Source: a virus. From it: a stretch of DNA of 64,000 nt. Shown here one piece after another: positions 629 through 11,807 of this stretch. The stretch is taken from IMG/VR virus record IMGVR_UViG_3300009126_000404, positions 1 to 64,000 of that record; one strand, 5' to 3'. Within the stretch, counting starts at the first letter, position 1; each line of letters opens with the position of its first letter. Both the position numbers and the translations under genes were made by a program. The notes under the pieces were generated by a model that was not told where the DNA came from, searched no databases, and saw only the letters and a program-made list of their open reading frames with translations.

Positions 629-657
629 TTGACAGGTGACCTCTTTAAGCGTATACT
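629..657 (+). promoter_or_regulatory. sigma70-type promoter
   Basis: TTGACA (629-634), 17 bp, TATACT (652-657), upstream of proX. Confidence 0.8.
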
Positions 658-723
658 ATAAGTAATAAGTTAGTACTATTAACTAATTTATGGTCAAAGT
701 TTATAAACTCTAAGGAGAAAATA

Positions 724-1722
724 ATGAAACGTTTTATGACAATACTCGGCTTTGTGTTAATGTCAGCAATTGCAAGTGCTGGCTTATTTACTGCAAAAGC
801 GGATGATATAAAAATTGCCGAGTTAAACTGGCAATCAGGTTCAATGATAGCCAGCATTGACGCTTATATATTAAAACATGGCTACGGACACAATATTGAA
901 ATTGTTCCAGGCGGAATTGACGCAACAATACAATCAATGATGGCAACAGGCTCACCTAATATATTTGGCGAAGCATGGACTTCATTATTGGGCGATAGTG
1001 CTCACGAATATATTGCTAACGGAGATCTTTTACAAGTAAGAGATGAAGTTGTAACAGGAGCTGGAGAAGGTTGGTTTATACCAAGTTATATAGCTGAAGA
1101 ATATGGTCTTAATACTATTGAAGATGTATTAGCAAGACCTGACTTATTCCCACATCCAGAAGATCCTAGCAAGGGTGGAATTGTAATTTGTCCTGAAGGT
1201 TGGAGTTGTAAAAAACATAACGAAAATCTATTTAGAGCATATGACATGGAAGCCAAAGGCTGGAAAATTATTGATCCAGGATCAGGTACTGGTTTAAATG
1301 CTTATTGGGAAGGACAAGTTGTCAAAAACAAAAGTGCATTTGGGTACTATTGGACACCTACTGTATTAGTAGGACGTTTAAATCTAATGGCACTTCCTTC
1401 TACTGAAGGCTATGCAGGAGATGATAATTGGACAAATTGTATTTCTAGAGCAGTTGATGAATGTGCTAATCCACAAGCGTCATCTTGGCCTACATCTAAA
1501 ACAGGAACTATTGTTACGCCAGGACTTCATCCAGCCGTAATGGTTTATCTTTCTAAAAGAGGATTTGATGGAAGTATTATTACTTCAATGCTAGTTTGGT
1601 CAGATGATAATCAAGCAACAGCAGATGAAGCCGCAGTTGAATTTTTAAGACAACATCCAGAAATTTGGACAAAATGGGTAACACCTGAAGCCGCAACAAG
1701 AATTACTGCGTCTTTAAATTAA
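724..1722 (+). CDS. proX: glycine betaine/choline/carnitine ABC transporter substrate-binding protein (ProX/OpuAC family)
   Basis: Signal peptide; IKIAELNWQS, GEAWT, EGWFIP, CPEGWSC, FGYYWTP motifs; AAGGAG RBS; followed by a proW-like gene. Confidence 0.85.
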   Translation: MKRFMTILGFVLMSAIASAGLFTAKADDIKIAELNWQSGSMIASIDAYILKHGYGHNIEIVPGGIDATIQSMMATGSPNIFGEAWTSLLGDSAHEYIANGDLLQVRDEVVTGAGEGWFIPSYIAEEYGLNTIEDVLARPDLFPHPEDPSKGGIVICPEGWSCKKHNENLFRAYDMEAKGWKIIDPGSGTGLNAYWEGQVVKNKSAFGYYWTPTVLVGRLNLMALPSTEGYAGDDNWTNCISRAVDECANPQASSWPTSKTGTIVTPGLHPAVMVYLSKRGFDGSIITSMLVWSDDNQATADEAAVEFLRQHPEIWTKWVTPEAATRITASLN

Positions 1723-1733
1723 GGTGATACATA

Positions 1734-2603
1734 TTGAACTTTCCATCTTTAGATAGAGAAACTATCACAGTTCTTAAGAAGTCTATTGACAGTACATTTA
1801 GAGAGTTTGCTAGTAATTGGGGAGAATGGTTTACAGAACTGCTCTCCCCAATTCATTGGCTACTTATTCATTTTGAGAAACTATTAATTGCTACGCCTTG
1901 GTATATATTTTTAGGTTTAACAAGTTTATTACTTTGGAAAGTAACACAAAACTGGAAACTAATATTAGGTTTCTTAATTAGTTTTAACTTAATTGGTTTA
2001 GTTGGTATGTGGGACGACACAATGCGAACACTAGCCATTGTAGTTGTTTCTACTCTTGTTTGTATAGTTGTCGGTATTCCTACAGGAATATTAATGGCAA
2101 AGAACAATTTAGCACAAAGAATTATCTTACCCATACTAGATTTAATGCAAACTATTCCAAGTTTTGTATATCTAATTCCTGTTATAATGTTATTTGGACT
2201 TGGCAAAGTTCCAGGCTTAATTGCTATAAGTGTCTTTGCTATACCTCCAGTGATTAGGTTTACAAATATTGGCATTCGAGAAATTGATAAAGATTTAACA
2301 GAAACAGCACACGCATTAGGATTAAGACCTATGCATATTTTAAGACTAATTGAATTACCACTGGCACGTAATGTTATACTTGGTGGAGTAAATCAAACAG
2401 TTATGATGGCTTTAGCAATGGTTGTTATTGCTAGTATGATTGGAGTACGAGGATTAGGCTCTCAAGTTATGAACTCAATAGGTAATGGATACTTAGGATT
2501 GGGTGTAATAAGTGGATTATCCATTGTAGCATTAGCAATCATTATAGATAGAGCAATACAATCACATAATAAACGCCATGATAAATGGAGAGATTATAAA
2601 TAG
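1734..2603 (+). CDS. proW: glycine betaine/proline ABC transporter permease (ProW family)
   Basis: LDLMQTIPSFVYLIPVIMLFGLG and EAA-loop (ETAHALG...IELPLA); multiple TM segments; TTG start after AAGGTG. Confidence 0.9.
   Translation: MNFPSLDRETITVLKKSIDSTFREFASNWGEWFTELLSPIHWLLIHFEKLLIATPWYIFLGLTSLLLWKVTQNWKLILGFLISFNLIGLVGMWDDTMRTLAIVVVSTLVCIVVGIPTGILMAKNNLAQRIILPILDLMQTIPSFVYLIPVIMLFGLGKVPGLIAISVFAIPPVIRFTNIGIREIDKDLTETAHALGLRPMHILRLIELPLARNVILGGVNQTVMMALAMVVIASMIGVRGLGSQVMNSIGNGYLGLGVISGLSIVALAIIIDRAIQSHNKRHDKWRDYK
2595..2602 (+). promoter_or_regulatory. T4 late-promoter-like box TATAAATA
   Basis: Exact T4 gp55 consensus 23 bp upstream of the first TauD-like gene; the AT-rich background lowers confidence. 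Confidence 0.35.
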
Positions 2604-2624
2604 TGTTAATAAAGGATTAGGTCA

Positions 2625-3491
2625 ATGAAACAAATAAAAGATTATACTGATGCCGAAATAATAGACGAAGCACAACGTATACTAACAGAAGGCTTTACCC
2701 TTCATTATGATCAGGAATTTACTCAAAGAGAATTAGTAGACTATTGTAAACGAATAGGCAATACTGATGATGATATGTTAGGGTATATGCAATTTAACCC
2801 TAAAGATAATCCAGATATATCAATTGTTTCTCCTGACCCAAGAATGTTGTTAGGACACAATGATTTAGAATGGCATTCAAATGGAACTGTACATCATGTA
2901 GTTGACGGTAAATGGGGACACAAAGAATGGTTAATTTGTTTATACTGTAAAGATTATTGCCCAGACACAGTTTTATCAGTAAGCAATAATCGTGATGCTT
3001 TTTTAGACTTACCAAAAGAAGAAAAGGATTGGTGGAGAGGTGTTGAAGTACAACTAAACAATAATGGTGGAAGTATATTAGGAAAGTATTATCATCAGAG
3101 CAAAGAAGCAATGACAGATGAAGATAGAGTTATTCCTATTGATGATGGATACAGAAAAGAATATAAAGAAATTCCAGAACACACCGGCGATGAGCGTATG
3201 CCTGTTGTTAATATTCATCCAGTTGGTGGGCAAGAATTTTTATATTGGCAACCACCTTTGATTACTAAAGCATGGTTTGATGGTGAACTTATAAATGACT
3301 TAAATGGATTACAACAAAAATTTGATAAGGTTATTAATAGAACCAAGTACATCAAAGACATTGTGTTTAGGCCCGGTGATATATTAATTATGGATCAATT
3401 TTATACACTACACAGACGTTCGCCAATAATGAATAAGAATAGAGAACTTTGGCGTGTTGCTATAGACTATACAAATTCTATAGACAAGTAG
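2625..3491 (+). CDS. TauD/TfdA-family Fe(II)/2-oxoglutarate dioxygenase-like protein (HxN variant)
   Basis: LEWHSNG, VNIHPVGG, FRPGDILIMDQFYTLHRR...RELWR match the TauD core; clear paralog of the next gene. Confidence 0.7.
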   Translation: MKQIKDYTDAEIIDEAQRILTEGFTLHYDQEFTQRELVDYCKRIGNTDDDMLGYMQFNPKDNPDISIVSPDPRMLLGHNDLEWHSNGTVHHVVDGKWGHKEWLICLYCKDYCPDTVLSVSNNRDAFLDLPKEEKDWWRGVEVQLNNNGGSILGKYYHQSKEAMTDEDRVIPIDDGYRKEYKEIPEHTGDERMPVVNIHPVGGQEFLYWQPPLITKAWFDGELINDLNGLQQKFDKVINRTKYIKDIVFRPGDILIMDQFYTLHRRSPIMNKNRELWRVAIDYTNSIDK

Positions 3492-3501
3492 GAGAATTAA
3501 C

Positions 3502-4425
3502 ATGATGAAAAAAATAACAGACTATACAGATTTCGAATTAAGAGAAGCAGTTGACATACTGTTACGAAATGGCCATGTATTATTTCACGATCAATACTTA
3601 ACACAAGATGAATTAGTAGAGTTTTGTAGACGAATAGGCAATACTGATGATTCTAATCCATCTATGGGACACATGGAGTTTAACCCAAAAGATAATCCAG
3701 ATATTTCCCTAATCACAACACAACCAGTAGGAAAGTCACCACATGGAATGTTTGGCCCAACAGACTTAGTATATCACGGAGATGGTGGTATGTGTCATGT
3801 TGGTGAATTTAAAGAATTATTAACAGGATTATATTGTGTAGGGTCATGTCCTGATACTGTATTAAGTTTATTAAACACTAATAAAGCATTTAGTTATTTT
3901 ACAGAAGAAGAAAAAGAATATTGGCGTAATGTAGAAACACAATTAAATGGTCAAGAAAAAGGAATATATGGAACTTATGAAGAGATGAAAAGAGATGGAA
4001 GTATGAAAGCCATTGACGGTGTTCAAGAAGCCTATAAAACTCCAATATACCATTATGATGATGAAAGACAAAACGTAGTTAATGTACACCCATATACCGA
4101 TAAAGAATTTATGTTATGGCAACCTGCATTTATCTGCAAAGCGTGGTACAAAGGCGAACCAATTGACGTAGATGAAATACAAAAGAAGTTTCGGAAGGCA
4201 TTAGTTCAAGGAAAGAATATAACAGACTTTGTTCTTAGAGAAGGCGACTTCTTAATTTGTGATCAATACTATACACTACACAGACGTTCATGGGTTAATA
4301 GTGCTGAGAGAATGATATGGCGAACAGCATTTGATTATTCTACATTATTAGGACCTGATAGTGTGTATGATAGTAGCATTGAAGAACAAAAATACATTTC
4401 ACGTAAACGCAAGAACAAAAGTTAA
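3502..4425 (+). CDS. TauD/TfdA-family Fe(II)/2-oxoglutarate dioxygenase
   Basis: YHGDG (HxD), VNVHPYT, LREGDFLICDQYYTLHRR...RMIWR. Confidence 0.75.
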   Translation: MMKKITDYTDFELREAVDILLRNGHVLFHDQYLTQDELVEFCRRIGNTDDSNPSMGHMEFNPKDNPDISLITTQPVGKSPHGMFGPTDLVYHGDGGMCHVGEFKELLTGLYCVGSCPDTVLSLLNTNKAFSYFTEEEKEYWRNVETQLNGQEKGIYGTYEEMKRDGSMKAIDGVQEAYKTPIYHYDDERQNVVNVHPYTDKEFMLWQPAFICKAWYKGEPIDVDEIQKKFRKALVQGKNITDFVLREGDFLICDQYYTLHRRSWVNSAERMIWRTAFDYSTLLGPDSVYDSSIEEQKYISRKRKNKS

Positions 4426-4430
4426 ACATT

Positions 4431-5864
4431 ATGTTAAAACAAAAACAAAAACCATTAAGCGATGATCAGATATTTCTAAGTTCATCAACTGAACAGATTA
4501 CTTGGGGCGAACTACATGCAAATCTTGATGCTAAAGTAGAAAGATTAAAAGAGCATGGAATTGGACCACACGTTGTTTTTGTAGTAGCAGAAGAGCAAGT
4601 AACAATAGATGATTACTTATGGATACTTGCTAGTATTAAGAACGGTGGGTCAGCTACACAAGCAGATGGTAGACAATCTAAAATGGAATTAGATGGGTTA
4701 ATTGCAGGCTGTAAAGCAATATGTATTATACGAAGTAATGAGATAACCATGCTAACAGACGATTTGACACCCACAATCCTACATCCATTAGAAGTTTATA
4801 GAGGTATGACAAGTGGAACTACAGTTAAAGAATTCTTTGAAATGTATCCTTTCTTTTGGGATTATGAAGACCACGAAAACGCAATTGTAGATGGACAAAC
4901 ACTATTAGGTTGTACAGCACATGCTTCAACACAACATTTATTTGCAATAGCACCAGAGTTTGAATTTGCTCAACGTCCCTATATACTTTGCACACACGGA
5001 TTTACAGCAACATACAATCCATATAACTTATTAAGAATGTATTATATAGGTGGCGGATTACACTTCTTAAACTATGGTGATAATATTCCAGAACAAATAC
5101 AAAAAGCAAATCCCAATTGTTGTATCTCATATCCTAATGCTGTTAAAAGAATAGTTGATGCATGTCCAGATGATTTCAATTGGAATGGAATCAAATATTG
5201 GGAAATGTCAGGTGGGCATACTCCAGAATCAATTGTTAGAAGTATTGAGAAAAAGTTTAACTTTGTATGTATGCACAACATGATGGCAAGTACAGAAGCA
5301 GACTGTCATTCTAGTGCAAAATATAGACCCGGTGATCCAATAGAAAACTTTTATGGATTTGTACACGACCCTAAATTTTATAATGGCGAACTTAAATATG
5401 ATGATGAGGGTGTACTTTGGTATAGGTATGGAACACTTGATTGGCAAACAGATGGCGATAAGTTTGAGAATAGAAATGGTGCCTGGTTTTATACAGGCAG
5501 AGTGTTCGATGATGTTATTTTTATGAAAGGTGGTGTCAAGATTTATACAGGAATGGTTGAGGCTAAGGCACTTGAAACTCCTGGCGTTGAAAACGTTGCT
5601 AGTTGTGAGAAAGACGAACTTCATTACTTAATATATACAGGAGATGCATCAGCAAAGGATATTGCAAAAAGTTTTAAAGAAATGCAACCATCTAAAAGAC
5701 CACACAACATATATCATGTTACTGATGAACTATTCTTTGGACAATCAAGTGAAACACTAACTCCACAAAAACTACAAAAACATAAATTAGCAGAAATTGT
5801 TTTAAATGGGCCTGCAGATCAAAGACTAGAACATATTAATCTTAAAGATCACTCTCAAGTATAA
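4431..5864 (+). CDS. ANL-superfamily adenylating enzyme (acyl-CoA ligase/AMP-binding-like), divergent
   Basis: MTSGTT P-loop, ASTE (YGxTE-like), TDGD, TGRVFDDVIFMKGGVKI, LTPQKLQK terminal Lys motif. Confidence 0.7.
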   Translation: MLKQKQKPLSDDQIFLSSSTEQITWGELHANLDAKVERLKEHGIGPHVVFVVAEEQVTIDDYLWILASIKNGGSATQADGRQSKMELDGLIAGCKAICIIRSNEITMLTDDLTPTILHPLEVYRGMTSGTTVKEFFEMYPFFWDYEDHENAIVDGQTLLGCTAHASTQHLFAIAPEFEFAQRPYILCTHGFTATYNPYNLLRMYYIGGGLHFLNYGDNIPEQIQKANPNCCISYPNAVKRIVDACPDDFNWNGIKYWEMSGGHTPESIVRSIEKKFNFVCMHNMMASTEADCHSSAKYRPGDPIENFYGFVHDPKFYNGELKYDDEGVLWYRYGTLDWQTDGDKFENRNGAWFYTGRVFDDVIFMKGGVKIYTGMVEAKALETPGVENVASCEKDELHYLIYTGDASAKDIAKSFKEMQPSKRPHNIYHVTDELFFGQSSETLTPQKLQKHKLAEIVLNGPADQRLEHINLKDHSQV

Positions 5865-5866
5865 TA

Positions 5867-6874
5867 ATGAATTGGCTAAAACAAATACACCATATGCAAA
5901 TTGATATTACAAGTTATTGTAACGCAAGGTGTGGTGCGTGTGCTAGAAACATAGCTGGAGGAAAAACACAGCCGTGGTTACAATTAAGTCACTTTGATAA
6001 ACATATTTGGTATCGTTTATTTACTGAAGATACTATTGATACAGAAATACTTAAATTAAAACTTAATGGAAATTGGGGAGACCCAGGTATGCATCCTGAT
6101 TTACCTGAATTAATTTCTGTGTTTGGTAAATGTAATCCAGAAGCATCTGTACAAATTTGTACTAATGGTGGAACACATAATGAAGAATGGTGGGGTAGTT
6201 TAGGCAATGCATTATCTAGAGATACAAAATATCATGCTGTTGATTTTGCTATTGATGGACTAGAAGACACACATTTAATATATAGGCGCTCAACAGATTA
6301 TAATAAAATATTAGCAAATGCAATATCTTTTGCTAAAGCAGGTGGAAAAAGTCGTTGGATAATGACATTGTTTGATTATAATATACATCAAATAGATGAA
6401 GCAATTGAGGTAGCAAGAAAGAATAACTTTACGTCAATTAAATTTAGATATAGTCATACAAAAAATGCATTAGTTGAAACACCAACAGAAGAATACAGGT
6501 TACATACTGATAAAGCAGATAAAGTTACATTGCCAGACACAGTATATTTTAATAATTCAGTAATGTTTTCTGAAAACTCAACAAAACATACAACTGATAG
6601 TAAATGCCCATGGTATAGAGATGAACGAATACAAATTGGGCCGTGGGGCAATGTGTGGCCATGTTGCTATATTGCAGATGTAATGGAAGGAATAACTGAG
6701 ATAAACCAACAAGAACAGTTAGAAAAAGAAATGCCTAATCAAGAATGGAACAATTTAACAAATCACTCATTAAATGACATACTTAGTCATAAATGGTTCA
6801 ATAGTACATTAAATAGTGCTGTAGAGCACGGTAAGTATGCTGTATGTATAAATAATTGTGAAATAACAACATGA
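5867..6874 (+). CDS. radical SAM protein with C-terminal SPASM/twitch-type domain
   Basis: CNARCGAC, GNWGDP, ICTNGG, FAIDGLE; C-terminal KCPW...VWPCCY...C..NC. Confidence 0.9.
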   Translation: MNWLKQIHHMQIDITSYCNARCGACARNIAGGKTQPWLQLSHFDKHIWYRLFTEDTIDTEILKLKLNGNWGDPGMHPDLPELISVFGKCNPEASVQICTNGGTHNEEWWGSLGNALSRDTKYHAVDFAIDGLEDTHLIYRRSTDYNKILANAISFAKAGGKSRWIMTLFDYNIHQIDEAIEVARKNNFTSIKFRYSHTKNALVETPTEEYRLHTDKADKVTLPDTVYFNNSVMFSENSTKHTTDSKCPWYRDERIQIGPWGNVWPCCYIADVMEGITEINQQEQLEKEMPNQEWNNLTNHSLNDILSHKWFNSTLNSAVEHGKYAVCINNCEITT

Positions 6875-7566
6875 ATGTAAATGACGCTATAAGAAAACGT
6901 AAATCAACACGTGCATTTTTAAATAAACAAGTGTATCCACATATTGTAATTAAAATACTAGAACAAGCAAAACGAGCACCAAGTGGCGATAATCATCAAC
7001 CTTGGGACGTTGTAGTACTTACTGGTAAAGCAAAAAACAACTTATGTATTAAGTTAGAAGAAGCATTTCGTTCAGGTAAACAACCTGTTATGGATTATGA
7101 ATACTATCCACAAGACAAAAAGTCTGAGAAAGATACTAAATGGTTTGGTAAGTATAAAGATAATAGAAAAGCATGTGGGATAGGGTTATACTCACAAATG
7201 GGTATTATTTCTAAAGGAATGCAAAAACAAAAAGACGACTTATATGCTAAAAACTACAGAGCTTTTGATGCACCCGTAATGCTATTATTCTTTATTGATA
7301 GAGAATTAGGGAAAGGTTCTTACGTAGACTATGGAATGTTTATACAATCTATTATGTTATTAGCAACAGAGAATGGACTAGCAACATGTTCACAAGGCTC
7401 GTTGGGTGAATATGCTGATATTATACGTGAAGAGTTGCCAAAGTACAAAGATAAGATAGTTTTATGTGGTATGAGTATGGGATATGAAGATCCATCAAAC
7501 CCAATTAATCAGTATAGAACTATGAGGCAAGACATAAACGAAATAGTAAAATATTATGACGAATAA
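6871..7566 (+). CDS. nitroreductase family protein
   Basis: AIRKRKSTRAF, RAPSGDNHQPW, AFDAPV, DYGMFIQSIML, GLATC, CGMSMGYED. Confidence 0.9.
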   Translation: MNVNDAIRKRKSTRAFLNKQVYPHIVIKILEQAKRAPSGDNHQPWDVVVLTGKAKNNLCIKLEEAFRSGKQPVMDYEYYPQDKKSEKDTKWFGKYKDNRKACGIGLYSQMGIISKGMQKQKDDLYAKNYRAFDAPVMLLFFIDRELGKGSYVDYGMFIQSIMLLATENGLATCSQGSLGEYADIIREELPKYKDKIVLCGMSMGYEDPSNPINQYRTMRQDINEIVKYYDE

Positions 7567-8158
7567 AGAACAAAAATGGCTCGATGAAGTATATGATAAA
7601 AATAATAGCGAGTTATATGACGAATGGGATAACTATCATGAACAAGTCATAGAAGGATTAGGATGGAAATGTCATACAATAGCGGCTAAATGGATTGCTG
7701 ATAACTTTCCAGAAGGAACCGAAGTTGCAGACATTGGATGTGGTAACGGTCAAGTGGGTATTGGATTAGCAGAACATGATTATAAAATTGATGGATATGA
7801 CTTAAATCTCAAAATGCTTGAAAGATTTATAGCAACAAACTATAGATCAATTAGTAAACATGACATTACTGAAAAAGCATTACCAAAGAAGTATAAATGT
7901 ATAACAGCAATAGGTGTATTAACAAAAGGTCATGTTAATTCTATTGCGGCAGAACATTTAGCAAACAGTTTAACAAACGACGGACTACTATTTTGTAGTA
8001 TGTCTAAGCACGATGGCGATTGGTTTTATGATGGTGGATGGAATGCACAATCATATTTAGATGTTGTAAATATTACACCAGTACACAGTTTAACCACCCC
8101 AGAAGGCATAAAAACGTATCATAATATGGTTATTTGGCGAAAGAAAGCAAGATCTTAG
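7556..8158 (+). CDS. class I SAM-dependent methyltransferase
   Basis: VADIGCGNG motif I, DGYDLN motif II, CITAIGVLTKGH. Confidence 0.8.
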   Translation: MTNKEQKWLDEVYDKNNSELYDEWDNYHEQVIEGLGWKCHTIAAKWIADNFPEGTEVADIGCGNGQVGIGLAEHDYKIDGYDLNLKMLERFIATNYRSISKHDITEKALPKKYKCITAIGVLTKGHVNSIAAEHLANSLTNDGLLFCSMSKHDGDWFYDGGWNAQSYLDVVNITPVHSLTTPEGIKTYHNMVIWRKKARS

Positions 8159-8187
8159 TTGACATCTTGGTAATAATGTATTATAAT
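8159..8187 (+). promoter_or_regulatory. perfect-consensus sigma70 promoter
   Basis: TTGACA (8159-8164), 17 bp, TATAAT (8182-8187). Confidence 0.85.
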
Positions 8188-8377: not shown

Positions 8378-8623
8378 ATGAATACAGGTAAAATAAAATG
8401 GTTCAATCCTACAAAAGGATATGGATTTATCGAAGTCGGCGGCGGTAGTAAGGATGTGTTTTTACATATTTCTGCATTACAAGAAGCTGGTATCGATACT
8501 ATTACAGAAGGTGATGAAGTATCTTTTGAAATAGGTGAAAATAGAGGTAAAAGTACCGCTATTAATGTTAAAAAAGTCGCGAGCGACAGTAATACGCCAG
8601 CGGGTAACCCGCATATTGGTTAA
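8378..8623 (+). CDS. cspA: cold-shock domain protein
   Basis: [15 protein letters not shown] (RNP1) and DVFLHIS (RNP2). Confidence 0.95.
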
Positions 8624-8640: not shown

Positions 8641-8823
8641 ATGAGTACTACAACACACGATGAAATTGTAACTAGTTACGAAACTTATCTTTCAGAGCAG
8701 GCAAACTTTGAAAACAAAGGTGTAAAAGCATCAGCGGCCCGTGCTAGGAAAGCACTAGGCGCAATTGGAAAACTTTCAAAAGCAAGACGAAAAGAAATCC
8801 AAGAAAAGAAAAACAATCTATAG
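8641..8823 (+). CDS. small basic histone H1-like (Hc1-type) protein
   Basis: KGVKASAARARKALGAIGKLSKARRKEIQEKK resembles the Hc1-like family common in large phages (recall). Confidence 0.6.
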   Translation: MSTTTHDEIVTSYETYLSEQANFENKGVKASAARARKALGAIGKLSKARRKEIQEKKNNL

Positions 8824-9197: not shown

Positions 9198-10637
9198 ATG
9201 GACGCAATTCTGACGTTACTCGCAGGAACATTTTACGGATTAATTATAGGACTTATACCAAGTGCTGGAGCCACAACAGGTCTCGTAGCACTTTTTGGTT
9301 TCATAAGTTACTTTGGTTTCGACCCATACTTGGGCGTAATATTCTGTATGGCAGTAGTTGCCTCAAGCACAACGGGTGATACTTATGCAGGAATACTATT
9401 AGGTATCCCAGGTGCAAACTCAGCCGCGGCTACAATGGTCGATGGGTATCCTTTAGCACAACAAGGTAGAGCCACAGAGGCTTTAACGGCCGCAATCACA
9501 ACAAGCACAATCAATGGATTATTTTGGGGTACATTAACTTTTGCCCTATTACCTCAATATGTGAAACTTATTATGTATTTCGGCATCCCTGAACTATGGG
9601 CTTTCATCTTATTAAGTTTAGCCTGTGTAGGATTTGTCAGTAATAGGTTTTGGTTTAGAAGTATCATAGCAATTTGTGTGGGTATTTTTGTAGGATTAAT
9701 AGGCATAAACCCAGAAACAAACATAGACAGATTTACTTTTGGATGGGAATATTTAGAAGATGGCGTACAACTTATGCCTTTTGTCGCTGGACTATTTGCT
9801 TTTCCTGAAATAGTACAAGGTTGGCGAAGAGGCAACTCAATTGCAACAATAGGTAAAGAAACGCATACGCATCAGACTTGGGAAGGTATTAAAGCAGTTT
9901 GGAAATATAAATGGGATGCTTTACGTGGCGGAGCAATTGGAGCATTTGTAGGATTTTTACCTGGTCTTGGTGGTGCTATGGGAGATTGGATGAGTTACGG
10001 TGCTACAGTAGCAAGTCATCCTGAAGAAGAATTTGGTAAAGGTAACCTAAGAGGTGTTATAGGGCCAGAAGGTAGTAACAATGCCCAAAAGGCAACTAGT
10101 ATGATTCCAACAGTATTGTTTGGAATACCTGGAGCAAGTTTTGCCGCAGTACTACTAGCCTTGTTTATGTATTTGGGTTTCGAATTAGGAACACAAGAAT
10201 TAGCAAATGATATAAAGTTCTTTGACAGTTTAACATTTGGATTTATGTGGGCGACAGTAATTACTGGTGTAGTTTGTGTACTATTCAATAAGCAAATTGC
10301 AAAAATAACTTATGTTCCTTACATTTATTACTTTCCATTCTTAGTAGCATTTATTATATGGGCTTGTGTTCAATACACAGGTGGTTGGCAAGATTATGCT
10401 ATACTAGGTATTACTACTTGTTTAGGATTGTTTTGTAAAAAATACAAGTTTAGTAGACCTGCAATGTTAATGGCATTTATACTTGCTACAAAGATAGAAG
10501 CATTAACATTACAAATGACAACAATTTATTCAATAGATAAACTAATGACAAGACCGTTGTTCTTAGTGATAATGAGTTGTGTAATTATGTTGTTAGTATT
10601 CAGCATAGTTAAAAGAAGTAAACTAGAATATGCTTAA
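9198..10637 (+). CDS. tctA: tripartite tricarboxylate transporter large permease (TctA family)
   Basis: GLIPSAGATTG, ILLGIPGANSAAATMVDGYPLAQQGRA, GFLPGLGG, GPEGSNNA...MIPTVLFGIPG. Confidence 0.9.
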   Translation: MDAILTLLAGTFYGLIIGLIPSAGATTGLVALFGFISYFGFDPYLGVIFCMAVVASSTTGDTYAGILLGIPGANSAAATMVDGYPLAQQGRATEALTAAITTSTINGLFWGTLTFALLPQYVKLIMYFGIPELWAFILLSLACVGFVSNRFWFRSIIAICVGIFVGLIGINPETNIDRFTFGWEYLEDGVQLMPFVAGLFAFPEIVQGWRRGNSIATIGKETHTHQTWEGIKAVWKYKWDALRGGAIGAFVGFLPGLGGAMGDWMSYGATVASHPEEEFGKGNLRGVIGPEGSNNAQKATSMIPTVLFGIPGASFAAVLLALFMYLGFELGTQELANDIKFFDSLTFGFMWATVITGVVCVLFNKQIAKITYVPYIYYFPFLVAFIIWACVQYTGGWQDYAILGITTCLGLFCKKYKFSRPAMLMAFILATKIEALTLQMTTIYSIDKLMTRPLFLVIMSCVIMLLVFSIVKRSKLEYA

Positions 10638-10673
10638 TTTAATAAATACATATACAATTCCAAGGAGACAAGA

Positions 10674-11807
10674 ATGAAGAAAATTCTAATGGTCCTAGTG
10701 TTATCACTAGGAATCGCAACATCAGCACTTGCTGAAACATTTACATTTGTTGTTCCACAGAAACCAGGTTCTGGTACTACTGTGTGGACAGAAATTGTAC
10801 TTAAAGAACTGGCTAGGTTTATGCCAGAACACACTCTAAAACTTAGAAACTTTCCAGGTGCTAGAGATATACCGGCAGTTAATGCCTTTCAAAACGAATT
10901 AAGATTTGACGATACTATTATTATGGTTTCACATGGTGGTAATGGTGTATCATTCTTACAAGAACAAGTTGATTACAACTATGCTGATTGGGAATCAATT
11001 GGTATGATGAACTTAAACATCATTGTTGGTAAAAGACTTGATGCAGATTTAGACAATATTATATTTGCATCTAATCCAGGTCGTGTTCCAGATGCAATGG
11101 CACTAGCTCTATTATTATGTGGACCACTAGATTCCATTGATGCATACACAACTTGTTTTAAATCAAAAGTTACTTTCGTTCCAGGTTTTAAAAAGGGCGG
11201 CGACAGACGTTTAGCATTTAAACGTGGTGAACTAACTGTTGACAGAGAAAATCCTGCGGCATATAAGAAACATATTGCTCCTAACGAAGAAGCAGAAATT
11301 TGGTTCCATCATGGAATTCTACAAGCAGATGGTACACACGCAGATGACCCTAACTATCCAGGTTTACAAATGGAAATTTTATATGAGCAAAAATGGGGAG
11401 AAGCACCATCAGGTCCAATGTATGATGCATATGTACTTGTTAAGTCATTCCGTGATGCTTTACAAAAAGCATTTTGGGTAAACGCTGGTAATCCAAATGC
11501 AGAGTTGTTACAAAAAGCATTGTTAGAAATGTCTAAAGACGAGCAGGCTATCAAAGCCATTCAAAAGAAAGTTGGCAATTATGAATGGGTTATTGGTGAA
11601 GAAGGTAATGCTCGAAGAGATACACTAATGACATTTGTTACAGAAGATGCATTACGTAATTTAGTTAAATTCTCAAATGAGGCGTTAAACATTCAAGCAG
11701 TTTATAAAGAAAGCATTTTAACTCCAGATGCAGTAGACGTTGTTGAAGAAGCTGAACAATCTAAAAGCATCAGAGGTTGGCTTAAAGACTTTTTTAACTG
11801 GCAATAA
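10674..11807 (+). CDS. TctC/Bug-like periplasmic solute-binding protein, divergent
   Basis: Signal peptide, TFVVPQKPGSGT (cf. xVVPxxxGGxxD), RNFPGA; directly after tctA. Confidence 0.7.
   Translation: MKKILMVLVLSLGIATSALAETFTFVVPQKPGSGTTVWTEIVLKELARFMPEHTLKLRNFPGARDIPAVNAFQNELRFDDTIIMVSHGGNGVSFLQEQVDYNYADWESIGMMNLNIIVGKRLDADLDNIIFASNPGRVPDAMALALLLCGPLDSIDAYTTCFKSKVTFVPGFKKGGDRRLAFKRGELTVDRENPAAYKKHIAPNEEAEIWFHHGILQADGTHADDPNYPGLQMEILYEQKWGEAPSGPMYDAYVLVKSFRDALQKAFWVNAGNPNAELLQKALLEMSKDEQAIKAIQKKVGNYEWVIGEEGNARRDTLMTFVTEDALRNLVKFSNEALNIQAVYKESILTPDAVDVVEEAEQSKSIRGWLKDFFNWQ

Follow-up and report, generated by a model that had tools for sequence, protein, structure and literature searches.

A possible operon for uptake and conversion of a DMSP-like zwitterion in a marine phage

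In the surface ocean, few fluxes of reduced sulfur and carbon are as large as that of DMSP, from which climate-active DMS derives. Cyanophages are known to carry auxiliary genes of the pstS type, where a periplasmic binding protein supplied by the phage works with transporter parts of the host. In Roseobacter and SAR11 bacteria, the DMSP-specific ABC importer is DmpXWV (structure 7YLE), and it was not until 2023 that bacterial DMSP uptake was identified through it (Li et al., ISME J 2023, PMC10030565).

Here, we describe an operon near the start of a 64,000-nucleotide stretch of viral DNA (the window), in which a transporter of this kind is followed by six enzyme genes. The source is a virus contig of 184 kb, and the closest counterparts of its sliding clamp are those of jumbo phages; both observations support the label “phage”. 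No homologue of the operon was found among 50,697 GenBank phages, and no published description of such a phage system, or of phage genes for DMSP uptake or conversion, was found in the literature, which bears out the sequence-only reading that this combination had not been described in phages.

Layout of the operon

The eight ORFs lie at 724-8158, all on the plus strand and co-directional, with intergenic gaps of 2-21 nt and two overlaps of 4 and 11 nt, and are flanked by two strong sigma70-type promoters. The early promoter which drives the block (629-657, plus strand; TTGACA-17-TATACT) has 11 of 12 consensus matches, and the next one (8159-8187, plus strand; TTGACA-17-TATAAT) is perfect and marks the end of the unit. 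These are the top two sites in the first 12 kb. The window contains four exact sigma70 consensus sites where 0.21 would be expected, all of them on the plus strand. The sole plus-strand terminator-like hairpin within the block (762-783) is weak and located inside signal-peptide codons. Eight contiguous genes between two sigma70 promoters, with no strong terminator, were confirmed as first proposed, and the promoters together with the tight packing support a single early transcription unit. For the T4-type late motif TATAAATA, 15 copies would be expected in the window, but only 4 occur. Two copies are inside the block: one at 2595-2602 (plus strand), conserved in the related contig L001, is a possible internal late promoter before the first TauD gene, and one at 6847-6854 (plus strand), within the radical SAM gene, may be a late promoter for the nitroreductase gene.

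Domain calls on the eight genes, made with Pfam and NCBIfam profiles, agree with the identities first named. A second transporter cassette, consisting of TctA and an exported TctC-like protein (9198-11807, plus strand), accompanies the enzyme block in several relatives. Genes for YhhQ, TctA, CspA, Hc1, and rubredoxin occur in the same stretch and make up a mixed cargo.

The transporter and its predicted ligand

The first gene (724-1722, plus strand) encodes a DmpX-like exported substrate-binding protein of the OpuAC family (130 bits; signal peptide at about residues 3-25), and the second (1734-2603, plus strand, TTG start) encodes an ABC permease of the ProW/ChoW/DmpW type with an EAA coupling motif (243 bits to the ChoW and ProW models). 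Among phages, no other gene of the block is as well conserved as the permease (73-90% identity). When the binding protein was compared with solved structures, 7YLE (DmpX) was the only match at E ≤ 0.01 (E 1e-44; profile 2e-69), and the profile scores were 237 bits for DmpX (7YLE), 47 for TmoX, and 25 for ProX. The DmpX pocket consists of a cage of Trp35, Trp84, Trp152, and Trp202 with Glu113, while Tyr200, the DMSP-specific residue, contacts the sulfonium and Thr64 binds the carboxylate (PMC10030565). The phage protein has W36, W85, W160, W210, E115, and Y208 at the matching positions, and none of these varies across 24 homologues. The position of Thr64 is occupied by Ile65 in the phage protein and its seven nearest relatives, and by Thr in 16 of the 24 homologues.

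Judged by sequence, the binding protein is a member of the DmpX lineage of DMSP-specific importers and not a generic ProX. Because the profile prefers DmpX over TmoX and ProX and the DmpX pocket is conserved, the evidence on ligand class favors DMSP over betaine and carnitine. The initial assignment of a ProX/ProW importer was therefore right as to the onium-osmolyte family and wrong as to ProX, and the betaine/carnitine-type ligand proposed with it is less likely than DMSP. An operon importing glycine betaine, carnitine, or gamma-butyrobetaine, followed by BBOX/TMLH-like hydroxylation and CaiC-like activation, would share the OpuAC-family binding protein and ProW-type permease, but lineage and pocket speak against it, as do the enzymes discussed below.

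A transport ATPase was sought as well: no ABC_tran match above the cut-off occurs in the incomplete 184-kb record, and a DmpV-type ATPase is absent from five related, likewise incomplete records in which SufC is the only ABC ATPase.

A second line of evidence for DMSP-type substrates, independent of the first, comes from the related contig L012, where a predicted DddP-like M24 gene is located between ligase and TauD, directly after the permease and within the enzyme block. Its product matches the NCBIfam DddP model at E 9e-83 and DddP structures at 1e-65 to 1e-70, compared with 1e-17 for prolidases, and in an alignment to 4RZY it keeps D295, D297, D307, H371, E406, and E421 as well as Y366 and D377. 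These correspond to the binuclear metal ligands of DddP and its catalytic residues Tyr366 and Asp377 (PMC4108388). The score of 278.5 bits is below the NCBIfam DddP equivalog cut-off of 600 bits, and the nearest kin are unstudied alphaproteobacterial M24 proteins of 410 aa. The window itself contains no DddP-like gene.

The enzymes and their neighbors in related viruses

Enzyme blocks of this kind comprise one or two TauD/TfdA-fold proteins. Here, two paralogues with 45% identity, TauD1 (2625-3491, plus strand; 288 aa) and TauD2 (3502-4425, plus strand; 307 aa), each contain a single Pfam TauD domain (50 and 55 bits). TauD2 has the canonical iron triad (H-G-D...H) and a basic C-terminal tail. 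The TauD1 site reads H84-S-N86...H263, in which Asn86 replaces the Asp of the canonical His-x-Asp/Glu...His triad. The subfamily is small (230 representatives among 1.84 billion), and Asn is the second iron ligand in 47 of 77 members, TauD1 included. Its cellular members belong to Bdellovibrionota MAGs, where they lie beside radical SAM, FMN-reductase, and methyltransferase genes in genomes with neither the ligase nor a DmpX-like protein.

The predicted TauD1 model (pLDDT 88; Foldseek E 1e-14 to 1e-16) is of the TauD/TfdA fold and closest to TauD (Z 23.3-23.8), RdpA/AAD (RdpA 23.3), and ScoE-type enzymes, at Z 21-24. For BBOX1 and TmpA, which have this fold too, Z is 18 (BBOX1 18.0, aligned only from its residue 124), so that the phage proteins are closer to TauD, RdpA, and ScoE by 5-6 Z units. 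Neither TauD protein has the N-terminal Zn-binding domain or the ~380-aa architecture of butyrobetaine/trimethyllysine hydroxylases, and the match to TIGR02410 is very weak (16.5 bits against a cut-off of 268), so that their suggested identity as such hydroxylases is not supported.

The third enzyme gene (4431-5864, plus strand) encodes an adenylate-forming (ANL) enzyme. Its AMP-binding score of 27.6 bits is just below the Pfam cut-off of 29.9, but we accept it as ANL since the core motifs A3 (TSGTTxK), A5 (STE), A7 (TDGD), A8 hinge (GRxxDxxxxxG), and the A10 Lys are invariant in a 16-sequence alignment. These motifs mark it as a genuine adenylating enzyme. It is virus-only. No close solved relative was found, and NCBIfam returned generic ANL matches of 15-21 bits only, none at the level of CaiC, so the earlier suggestion of a CaiC-type carnitine/butyrobetaine CoA ligase is not upheld. 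With this, the betaine/carnitine reading, to which the shared fold and the TIGR02410 match would otherwise lend themselves, becomes very unlikely. An isonitrile-type small-molecule pathway with a ScoE-like oxygenase and an acyl ligase, which the sequence-only reading had offered as an alternative, is the least probable of all: the best structural matches include SfaA, ScoE, Rv0097, and IsnB, and an ANL gene lies alongside, but TauD and RdpA score equally or higher, and no acyl carrier protein, thioesterase, or NRPS is found among the eight genes or the flanking genes.

The radical SAM/SPASM gene (5867-6874, plus strand; Radical_SAM 34.6 bits) encodes the cluster motif CNARCGAC at residues 18-25, which conforms to CxxxCxxC, and a C-terminal Cys-rich SPASM region scoring 19 bits, under its cut-off. 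It was listed with the operon in the sequence-only reading but does not belong to the conserved set: bases 5863-6870 are missing from L001, and the gene is a one-gene insertion found in this genome only, with 40% identity to the contig gene at 66125-67225, a member of the radical-SAM array of the phage. The remaining genes encode an NfnB-type FMN nitroreductase (6871-7566, plus strand; 83 bits; 3GR3 E 3e-43, 7DP0 E 2e-33) and a class I SAM-dependent small-molecule methyltransferase (7556-8158, plus strand; Pfam/NCBIfam). To our knowledge, neither has a place in known DMSP catabolism.

Of about 19 viral contigs with the ANL gene, 11 have the transporter and the enzymes side by side, in three gene arrangements, which indicates that adjacency survived rearrangement. 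Most of the genes co-occur in related phages, with the exception of radical SAM, and each cassette also occurs alone: the binding protein is missing within 10 kb in seven ANL contigs from two clades, at least eight contigs have the binding protein without the enzymes, and between L023 and L012 the enzymes make up a clean 3.5-kb indel. Histories differ too, as identity to L001 is 85-88% for the enzymes and 67% for the binding protein, a pattern which is reversed relative to L012. The claim that all eight genes form one pathway is consequently not supported as first put.

These observations fit a mosaic island, in which a stand-alone transporter for nutrient or osmolyte uptake and an unrelated enzyme block are merely co-transcribed since accessory genes pile up in the early region, and the TauD-ligase-nitroreductase-methyltransferase block, together with the inserted radical SAM gene, serves a large radical-SAM/tailoring system of the phage with a probably sugar-type product. 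Also in its favor are the Bdellovibrionota clusters, which have the TauD subfamily and radical SAM but neither transporter nor ligase, the inserted paralogue of an array gene, the ligase block directly after radical-SAM array genes in L014, the ligase adjoining mini-ANL-island genes in L007, L011, and L014, and the mixed cargo. Adjacency kept through three gene orders, the insertion of the DddP-like gene of L012 in the enzyme block just behind a DmpX-like transporter, and one promoter with tight coupling for the entire block oppose it. We regard the mosaic island as the chief rival reading and a serious possibility, albeit on balance a doubtful one.

In one relative, a YhhQ transporter gene adjoins the binding-protein gene, which suggests a general “transporter island”. 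As YhhQ belongs to the queuosine-precursor transporter family, it also bears on nucleobase or DNA modification, where the ligase would activate a carboxylated precursor such as 7-carboxy-7-deazaguanine in the stead of QueC, and oxidation, reduction, and methylation would be tailoring steps. We give this a very slim chance, as the enzymes show nothing pointing to purines.

Proposed function and comparison with known systems

The explanation that we tentatively prefer, while rating it slightly below an even chance, is that the block is an early operon of an uncultured marine jumbo phage, transcribed by the host RNA polymerase, which couples import of a DMSP-like zwitterion to its conversion. The DMSP-like reading is favored by the DmpX lineage and pocket, the shared promoter, the adjacency in relatives, the DddP-like gene of L012, the TauD1 fold, and the ANL motifs. 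The carboxylate-type TctA/TctC-like transporter accompanying the enzyme block was also counted for coupling. The reading is weakened by the cassettes found alone, the incongruent identities, the Bdellovibrionota clusters, the ligase beside array and mini-ANL genes, the YhhQ neighbor, the replacement of Thr64 with Ile, the DddP-like score under its cut-off, the TauD1 site without the canonical Asp, and the misfit of nitroreductase and methyltransferase.

Under the coupled reading, the phage binding protein and permease would dock onto a ProV/DmpV-type ATPase of the host, so that an infected cell takes up more DMSP or a close analogue. Hydroxylation by the TauD proteins may then take place at a carbon adjacent to the sulfonium or to a different heteroatom, since such chemistry typifies the enzymes nearest to them in structure, and either a methyl group or the sulfur part would be freed. 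The ligase could activate the resulting or imported carboxylate to an acyl-AMP or CoA thioester, as DmdB/PrpE do when bacteria break down DMSP, while the radical SAM gene is probably a recent add-on with no core step. The infected cell would probably benefit from reduced sulfur or carbon, or from osmotic stability. That the operon makes up a full virus-specific route for DMSP or a close analogue, consisting of the importer, 2-oxoglutarate-dependent C-S or S-methyl cleavage by the Asn-variant TauD, and the CoA/AMP ligase, seems unlikely to us. If true, it would be a third way of DMSP degradation besides lyases and DmdA, run by a virus, and the release of DMS and methanethiol from infected marine bacteria would shift.

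If the binding protein binds DMSP, infection would directly reprogram DMSP uptake in abundant marine bacteria, and a phage binding protein and permease working with a host ATPase would amount to transporter piracy of a new form. Whatever the substrate, two enzyme families worth study emerge from the operon: a virus-only adenylating enzyme that is carrier-less, and a small TauD subfamily with Asn for the iron-binding Asp.

Compared with bacterial DmpXWV, the phage system has an exported binding protein of the same lineage with the four-Trp cage and the equivalents of Glu113 and Tyr200, and an adjacent ProW-type permease. It differs in being phage-encoded, in having no DmpV ATPase, in the Thr64-to-Ile replacement of this phage group, with binding predicted from sequence, and in adding enzymes which bacteria do not link to dmpXWV. 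The TauD proteins resemble the Fe(II)/2-oxoglutarate dioxygenases TauD, TfdA/RdpA, and ScoE in fold (Z 21-24), distal His-Arg motif, 2OG-binding Arg residues, and the triad of TauD2, but share only 14-18% identity with them and form a small subfamily. Bacterial DMSP catabolism is paralleled by the DddP-like protein of L012 with all catalytic residues and by a carboxylate-activating ligase after the importer; however, the ligase is related to DmdB/PrpE at the superfamily level only, and the known DMSP routes include no TauD, nitroreductase, or methyltransferase. As with cyanophage pstS, the phage binding protein must work with transporter parts of the host during infection, whereas here the phage also brings the permease, the ligand is predicted to be an organosulfur/onium osmolyte, and the enzymes are located in the same operon.

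Transcription signals and layout of the eight-gene block

The eight-gene block is a real observation and its gene set is conserved. Domain searches returned the domains that the sequence-only reading had named for all eight ORFs, which lie on the + strand and are separated by 2-21 nt or overlap: binding protein (724-1722), permease (1734-2603), TauD1 (2625-3491), TauD2 (3502-4425), ligase (4431-5864), radical SAM protein (5867-6874), nitroreductase (6871-7566) and methyltransferase (7556-8158). The most likely reading, which we hold tentatively, is a phage operon that uses pirated host energy to take up a DMSP-like zwitterion, which it then converts.

The virus record, of which the window is the initial 64 kb, is a single sequence of 183,842 bases, about half complete according to CheckV, with genes on the + strand up to approximately 90 kb and on the - strand past that point. 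No match to the major capsid protein (Gp23) was found in the half-complete record. Its sliding clamp is 37-42% identical to its nearest kin, which are those of Sinorhizobium phage Phosso, the Pseudomonas PA5oct group and large Escherichia phages; as these are jumbo phages, "marine jumbo phage" is a fair label.

The two sigma70 promoters proposed to flank the block proved to be the best such sites in the first 12 kb, and the claim that the block lacks a terminator also stood, as no convincing + strand terminator was found inside it. Exact sigma70-type consensus sites number four in the window where 0.21 would be expected, all on the + strand, so they form a real promoter class. Inside the block, the T4-type late-promoter motif TATAAATA is present at 2595-2602 before TauD1 and at 6847-6854 before the nitroreductase gene. 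The window has far fewer copies than expected (4 against 15), and these are two of the four. The copy before TauD1 is kept in the closest relative (L001), and the related contig L012 also has one before its TauD gene; none was found at the corresponding junctions in the other relatives examined. The two copies may be internal late promoters. Separate small early genes flank the operon, encoding a rubredoxin (315-500), a CspA-type cold-shock protein (8378-8623) and an Hc1 histone-like protein (8641-8823).

Transporter genes and pointers to DMSP

The binding protein has 332 aa with a signal peptide, and its sole match at E ≤ 0.01 among all solved structures was 7YLE (E = 1e-44), that of RnDmpX, the substrate-binding component of DmpXWV, an importer specific for DMSP (PMC10030565). 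A profile built from 24 phage and cellular homologues scored 237 bits against DmpX, 47 against TmoX (4XZ6) and 25 against E. coli ProX. The pocket residues published for RnDmpX, in which Tyr200 touches the sulfonium and Thr64 binds the carboxylate (PMC10030565), were transferred via the alignment to 7YLE. Trp35, Trp84, Glu113, Trp152, Tyr200 and Trp202 correspond to W36, W85, E115, W160, Y208 and W210 of the window protein, all six invariant in the 24 homologues. Thr64, found as Thr in 16 of the 24, is replaced by Ile65 in the window protein and its seven closest relatives. The pocket thus being kept except for this position, the ligand may be DMSP or a close analogue.

The permease belongs to the ProW/ChoW type (243 bits), and across phages no gene of the block is better conserved. 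The 184-kb record has no gene for a transport ATPase. The ABC ATPase of two relatives was considered as a transporter component and rejected, since in five related records (89-103 kb) the sole true ABC ATPase is SufC of an Fe-S assembly set, adjoining SufD and SufE. With no transport ATPase in the record or the five relatives, the binding protein and permease would have to use a host ATPase. SufE-like, SufC and SufD genes of related phages lie, for example, at 1059-2740 of L048 (IMGVR_UViG_3300009130_000010), and are consistent with a heavy demand for Fe-S clusters by the phages' many radical SAM enzymes. In one record, a YhhQ/Vut_1 transporter gene (9379-9987 of L024, IMGVR_UViG_3300030390_001110) stands immediately upstream of the binding protein gene.

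In L012 (IMGVR_UViG_3300031886_000791), a gene at 5353-6573, between the ligase and TauD genes, encodes an M24 protein that, among families, matches the DMSP lyase DddP best (E = 9e-83). Its best structural matches are DddP 4RZY, 4S00, 4S01 and 4B28 (E = 1e-65 to 1e-70), with prolidases at 1e-17, and compared with the published catalytic residues (PMC4108388) it retains D295, D297, D307, H371, E406 and E421 together with Tyr366 and Asp377. It falls under the DddP cut-off (278 against 600 bits), and it is most similar (60-75% identity) to a large family of unstudied 410-aa M24 proteins from marine Alphaproteobacteria. Among 78 cellular metagenome loci of this family, the commonest neighbors were a threonine-aldolase-like lyase (17 loci), a Rieske oxygenase (15), a sulfotransferase-like protein and a short-chain dehydrogenase (13 each), a different ANL ligase (10) and a zinc-type dehydrogenase (8); Opu-type transporter genes adjoin it in two loci. 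The DddP-like gene was seen on just one contig in IMG/VR and two from metagenomes, and is absent from the window's genome. It would be a second pointer to DMSP, to be taken with caution.

The enzyme genes

TauD1 and TauD2 are paralogues (45% identity) within a small subfamily, of which a profile search returned 230 representatives among 1.84 billion proteins. Their iron sites read H-S-N in TauD1 and H-G-D in TauD2, and alignment to solved taurine dioxygenase places the Asn/Asp at the triad position. An alignment of 77 members shows Asn as second iron ligand in 47 of them, Asp in 23 and Ala in 4; the variants with Ala or Gly are halogenase-like. PDB searches with the TauD proteins and with the ligase, by single sequence and by profile, gave marginal matches only.

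A TauD1 model reached pLDDT 88 from a 77-sequence alignment (54 from 12 sequences). The structures closest to it are those of taurine dioxygenases (Z 23.8 and 23.3), RdpA (23.3), Rv0097/ScoE-type enzymes (22.4) and IsnB (21.1). These enzymes share one chemistry, in which a carbon adjoining a heteroatom is hydroxylated and that group is then lost. TmpA and human BBOX1 reached only Z 18, under eight TauD-type structures, and were not among the best 50 Foldseek matches. Together with the higher profile score for DmpX than for ProX, this leaves the import and conversion of betaine or carnitine, as the sequence-only reading had it, poorly supported. Its other suggestion, an isonitrile-like small-molecule cluster, fared no better.

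The ligase scores just under the Pfam cut-off, and its P-loop TSGTTVK, STEAD, TDGDK, GRxxDD hinge and C-terminal Lys do not vary among 16 homologues with identities as low as 50%. It belongs to a small viral family (41 clusters, all at least 48% identical), its protein-atlas neighbors are 100% viral, and no relative came up in a pattern scan of GTDB genomes. The nitroreductase is of the ordinary NfnB type (3GR3, E = 3e-43; Sphingopyxis NfnB also matches), and the methyltransferase is a generic class I enzyme. Among L002, L003 and L014, the methyltransferase (7556-8158 in the window) occurs in two forms, approximately 45% and 65-71% identical to that of the window, which do not track the ligase tree, suggesting replacement by a second lineage. 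The nearest kin of the radical SAM gene is a paralogue (40%) belonging to the radical-SAM array that the phage itself carries at 66 kb.

Conservation in related phages and comparison with described systems

Two IMG/VR scans gave 37 loci on approximately 27 contigs. The binding protein and permease are paired in every case, and the ligase gene has one or two TauD genes beside it and the nitroreductase and methyltransferase genes, in that order, immediately after it. The co-occurrence on which the earlier proposal depended held in part: of 19 contigs with the ligase, 11 have the transporter next to the enzymes; each half also occurs alone; and no relative in the set has the radical SAM gene, which appears against L001 (80% nucleotide identity) as a precise one-gene insertion at 5863-6870. 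Adjacency takes three orders, with the transporter first, with the enzymes first (L002, L003), or as transporter-ligase-M24-TauD (L012). Two clades of the ligase (L009/L011 and L013-L019) lack a transporter within 10 kb, and at least eight contigs with the binding protein lack the enzymes. Between L023 and L012 there is a clean 3.46-kb indel that comprises the three enzymes, immediately 3' of the permease. Identities are incongruent between the two halves, which indicates that these are exchanged as modules. A TctA gene and an exported 377-aa TctC-like protein (9198-11807) accompany the enzyme block in several related lineages; no TctB was found in the window's genome.

The main rival to import followed by conversion, somewhat less likely, is that a cassette for uptake and one for tailoring share transcription and nothing more. 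In favor of two cassettes, a genome scan with an 8-sequence TauD alignment located cellular subfamily members in Bdellovibrionota MAGs among genes for radical SAM proteins (including the SPASM-first type), FMN reductase, methyltransferase and fatty-acid hydroxylase, in genomes that lack both the viral ligase and a DmpX-like protein. Likewise, radical-SAM-array genes immediately precede the ligase block in L014, and in L007, L011 and L014 the full-length ligase block lies directly beside homologues of a 236-aa mini-ANL and its neighbors. In the window's genome this mini-ANL (contig positions 101768-102478; L045:1269-1979) lies 97 kb off, in the 101-104 kb region, with three unannotated neighbors.

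The sequence-only reading knew of no described phage system of this kind, and this still holds. DNA and protein searches of 50,697 GenBank phages gave no match to the block, the binding protein or the ligase, and nothing relevant was found in the literature on phage DMSP or betaine transporter genes or on 2OG-dependent DMSP oxidation. A pelagimyophage survey mentions only "substrate transport" and radical SAM cassettes, located in hypervariable islands (PMC7029224).
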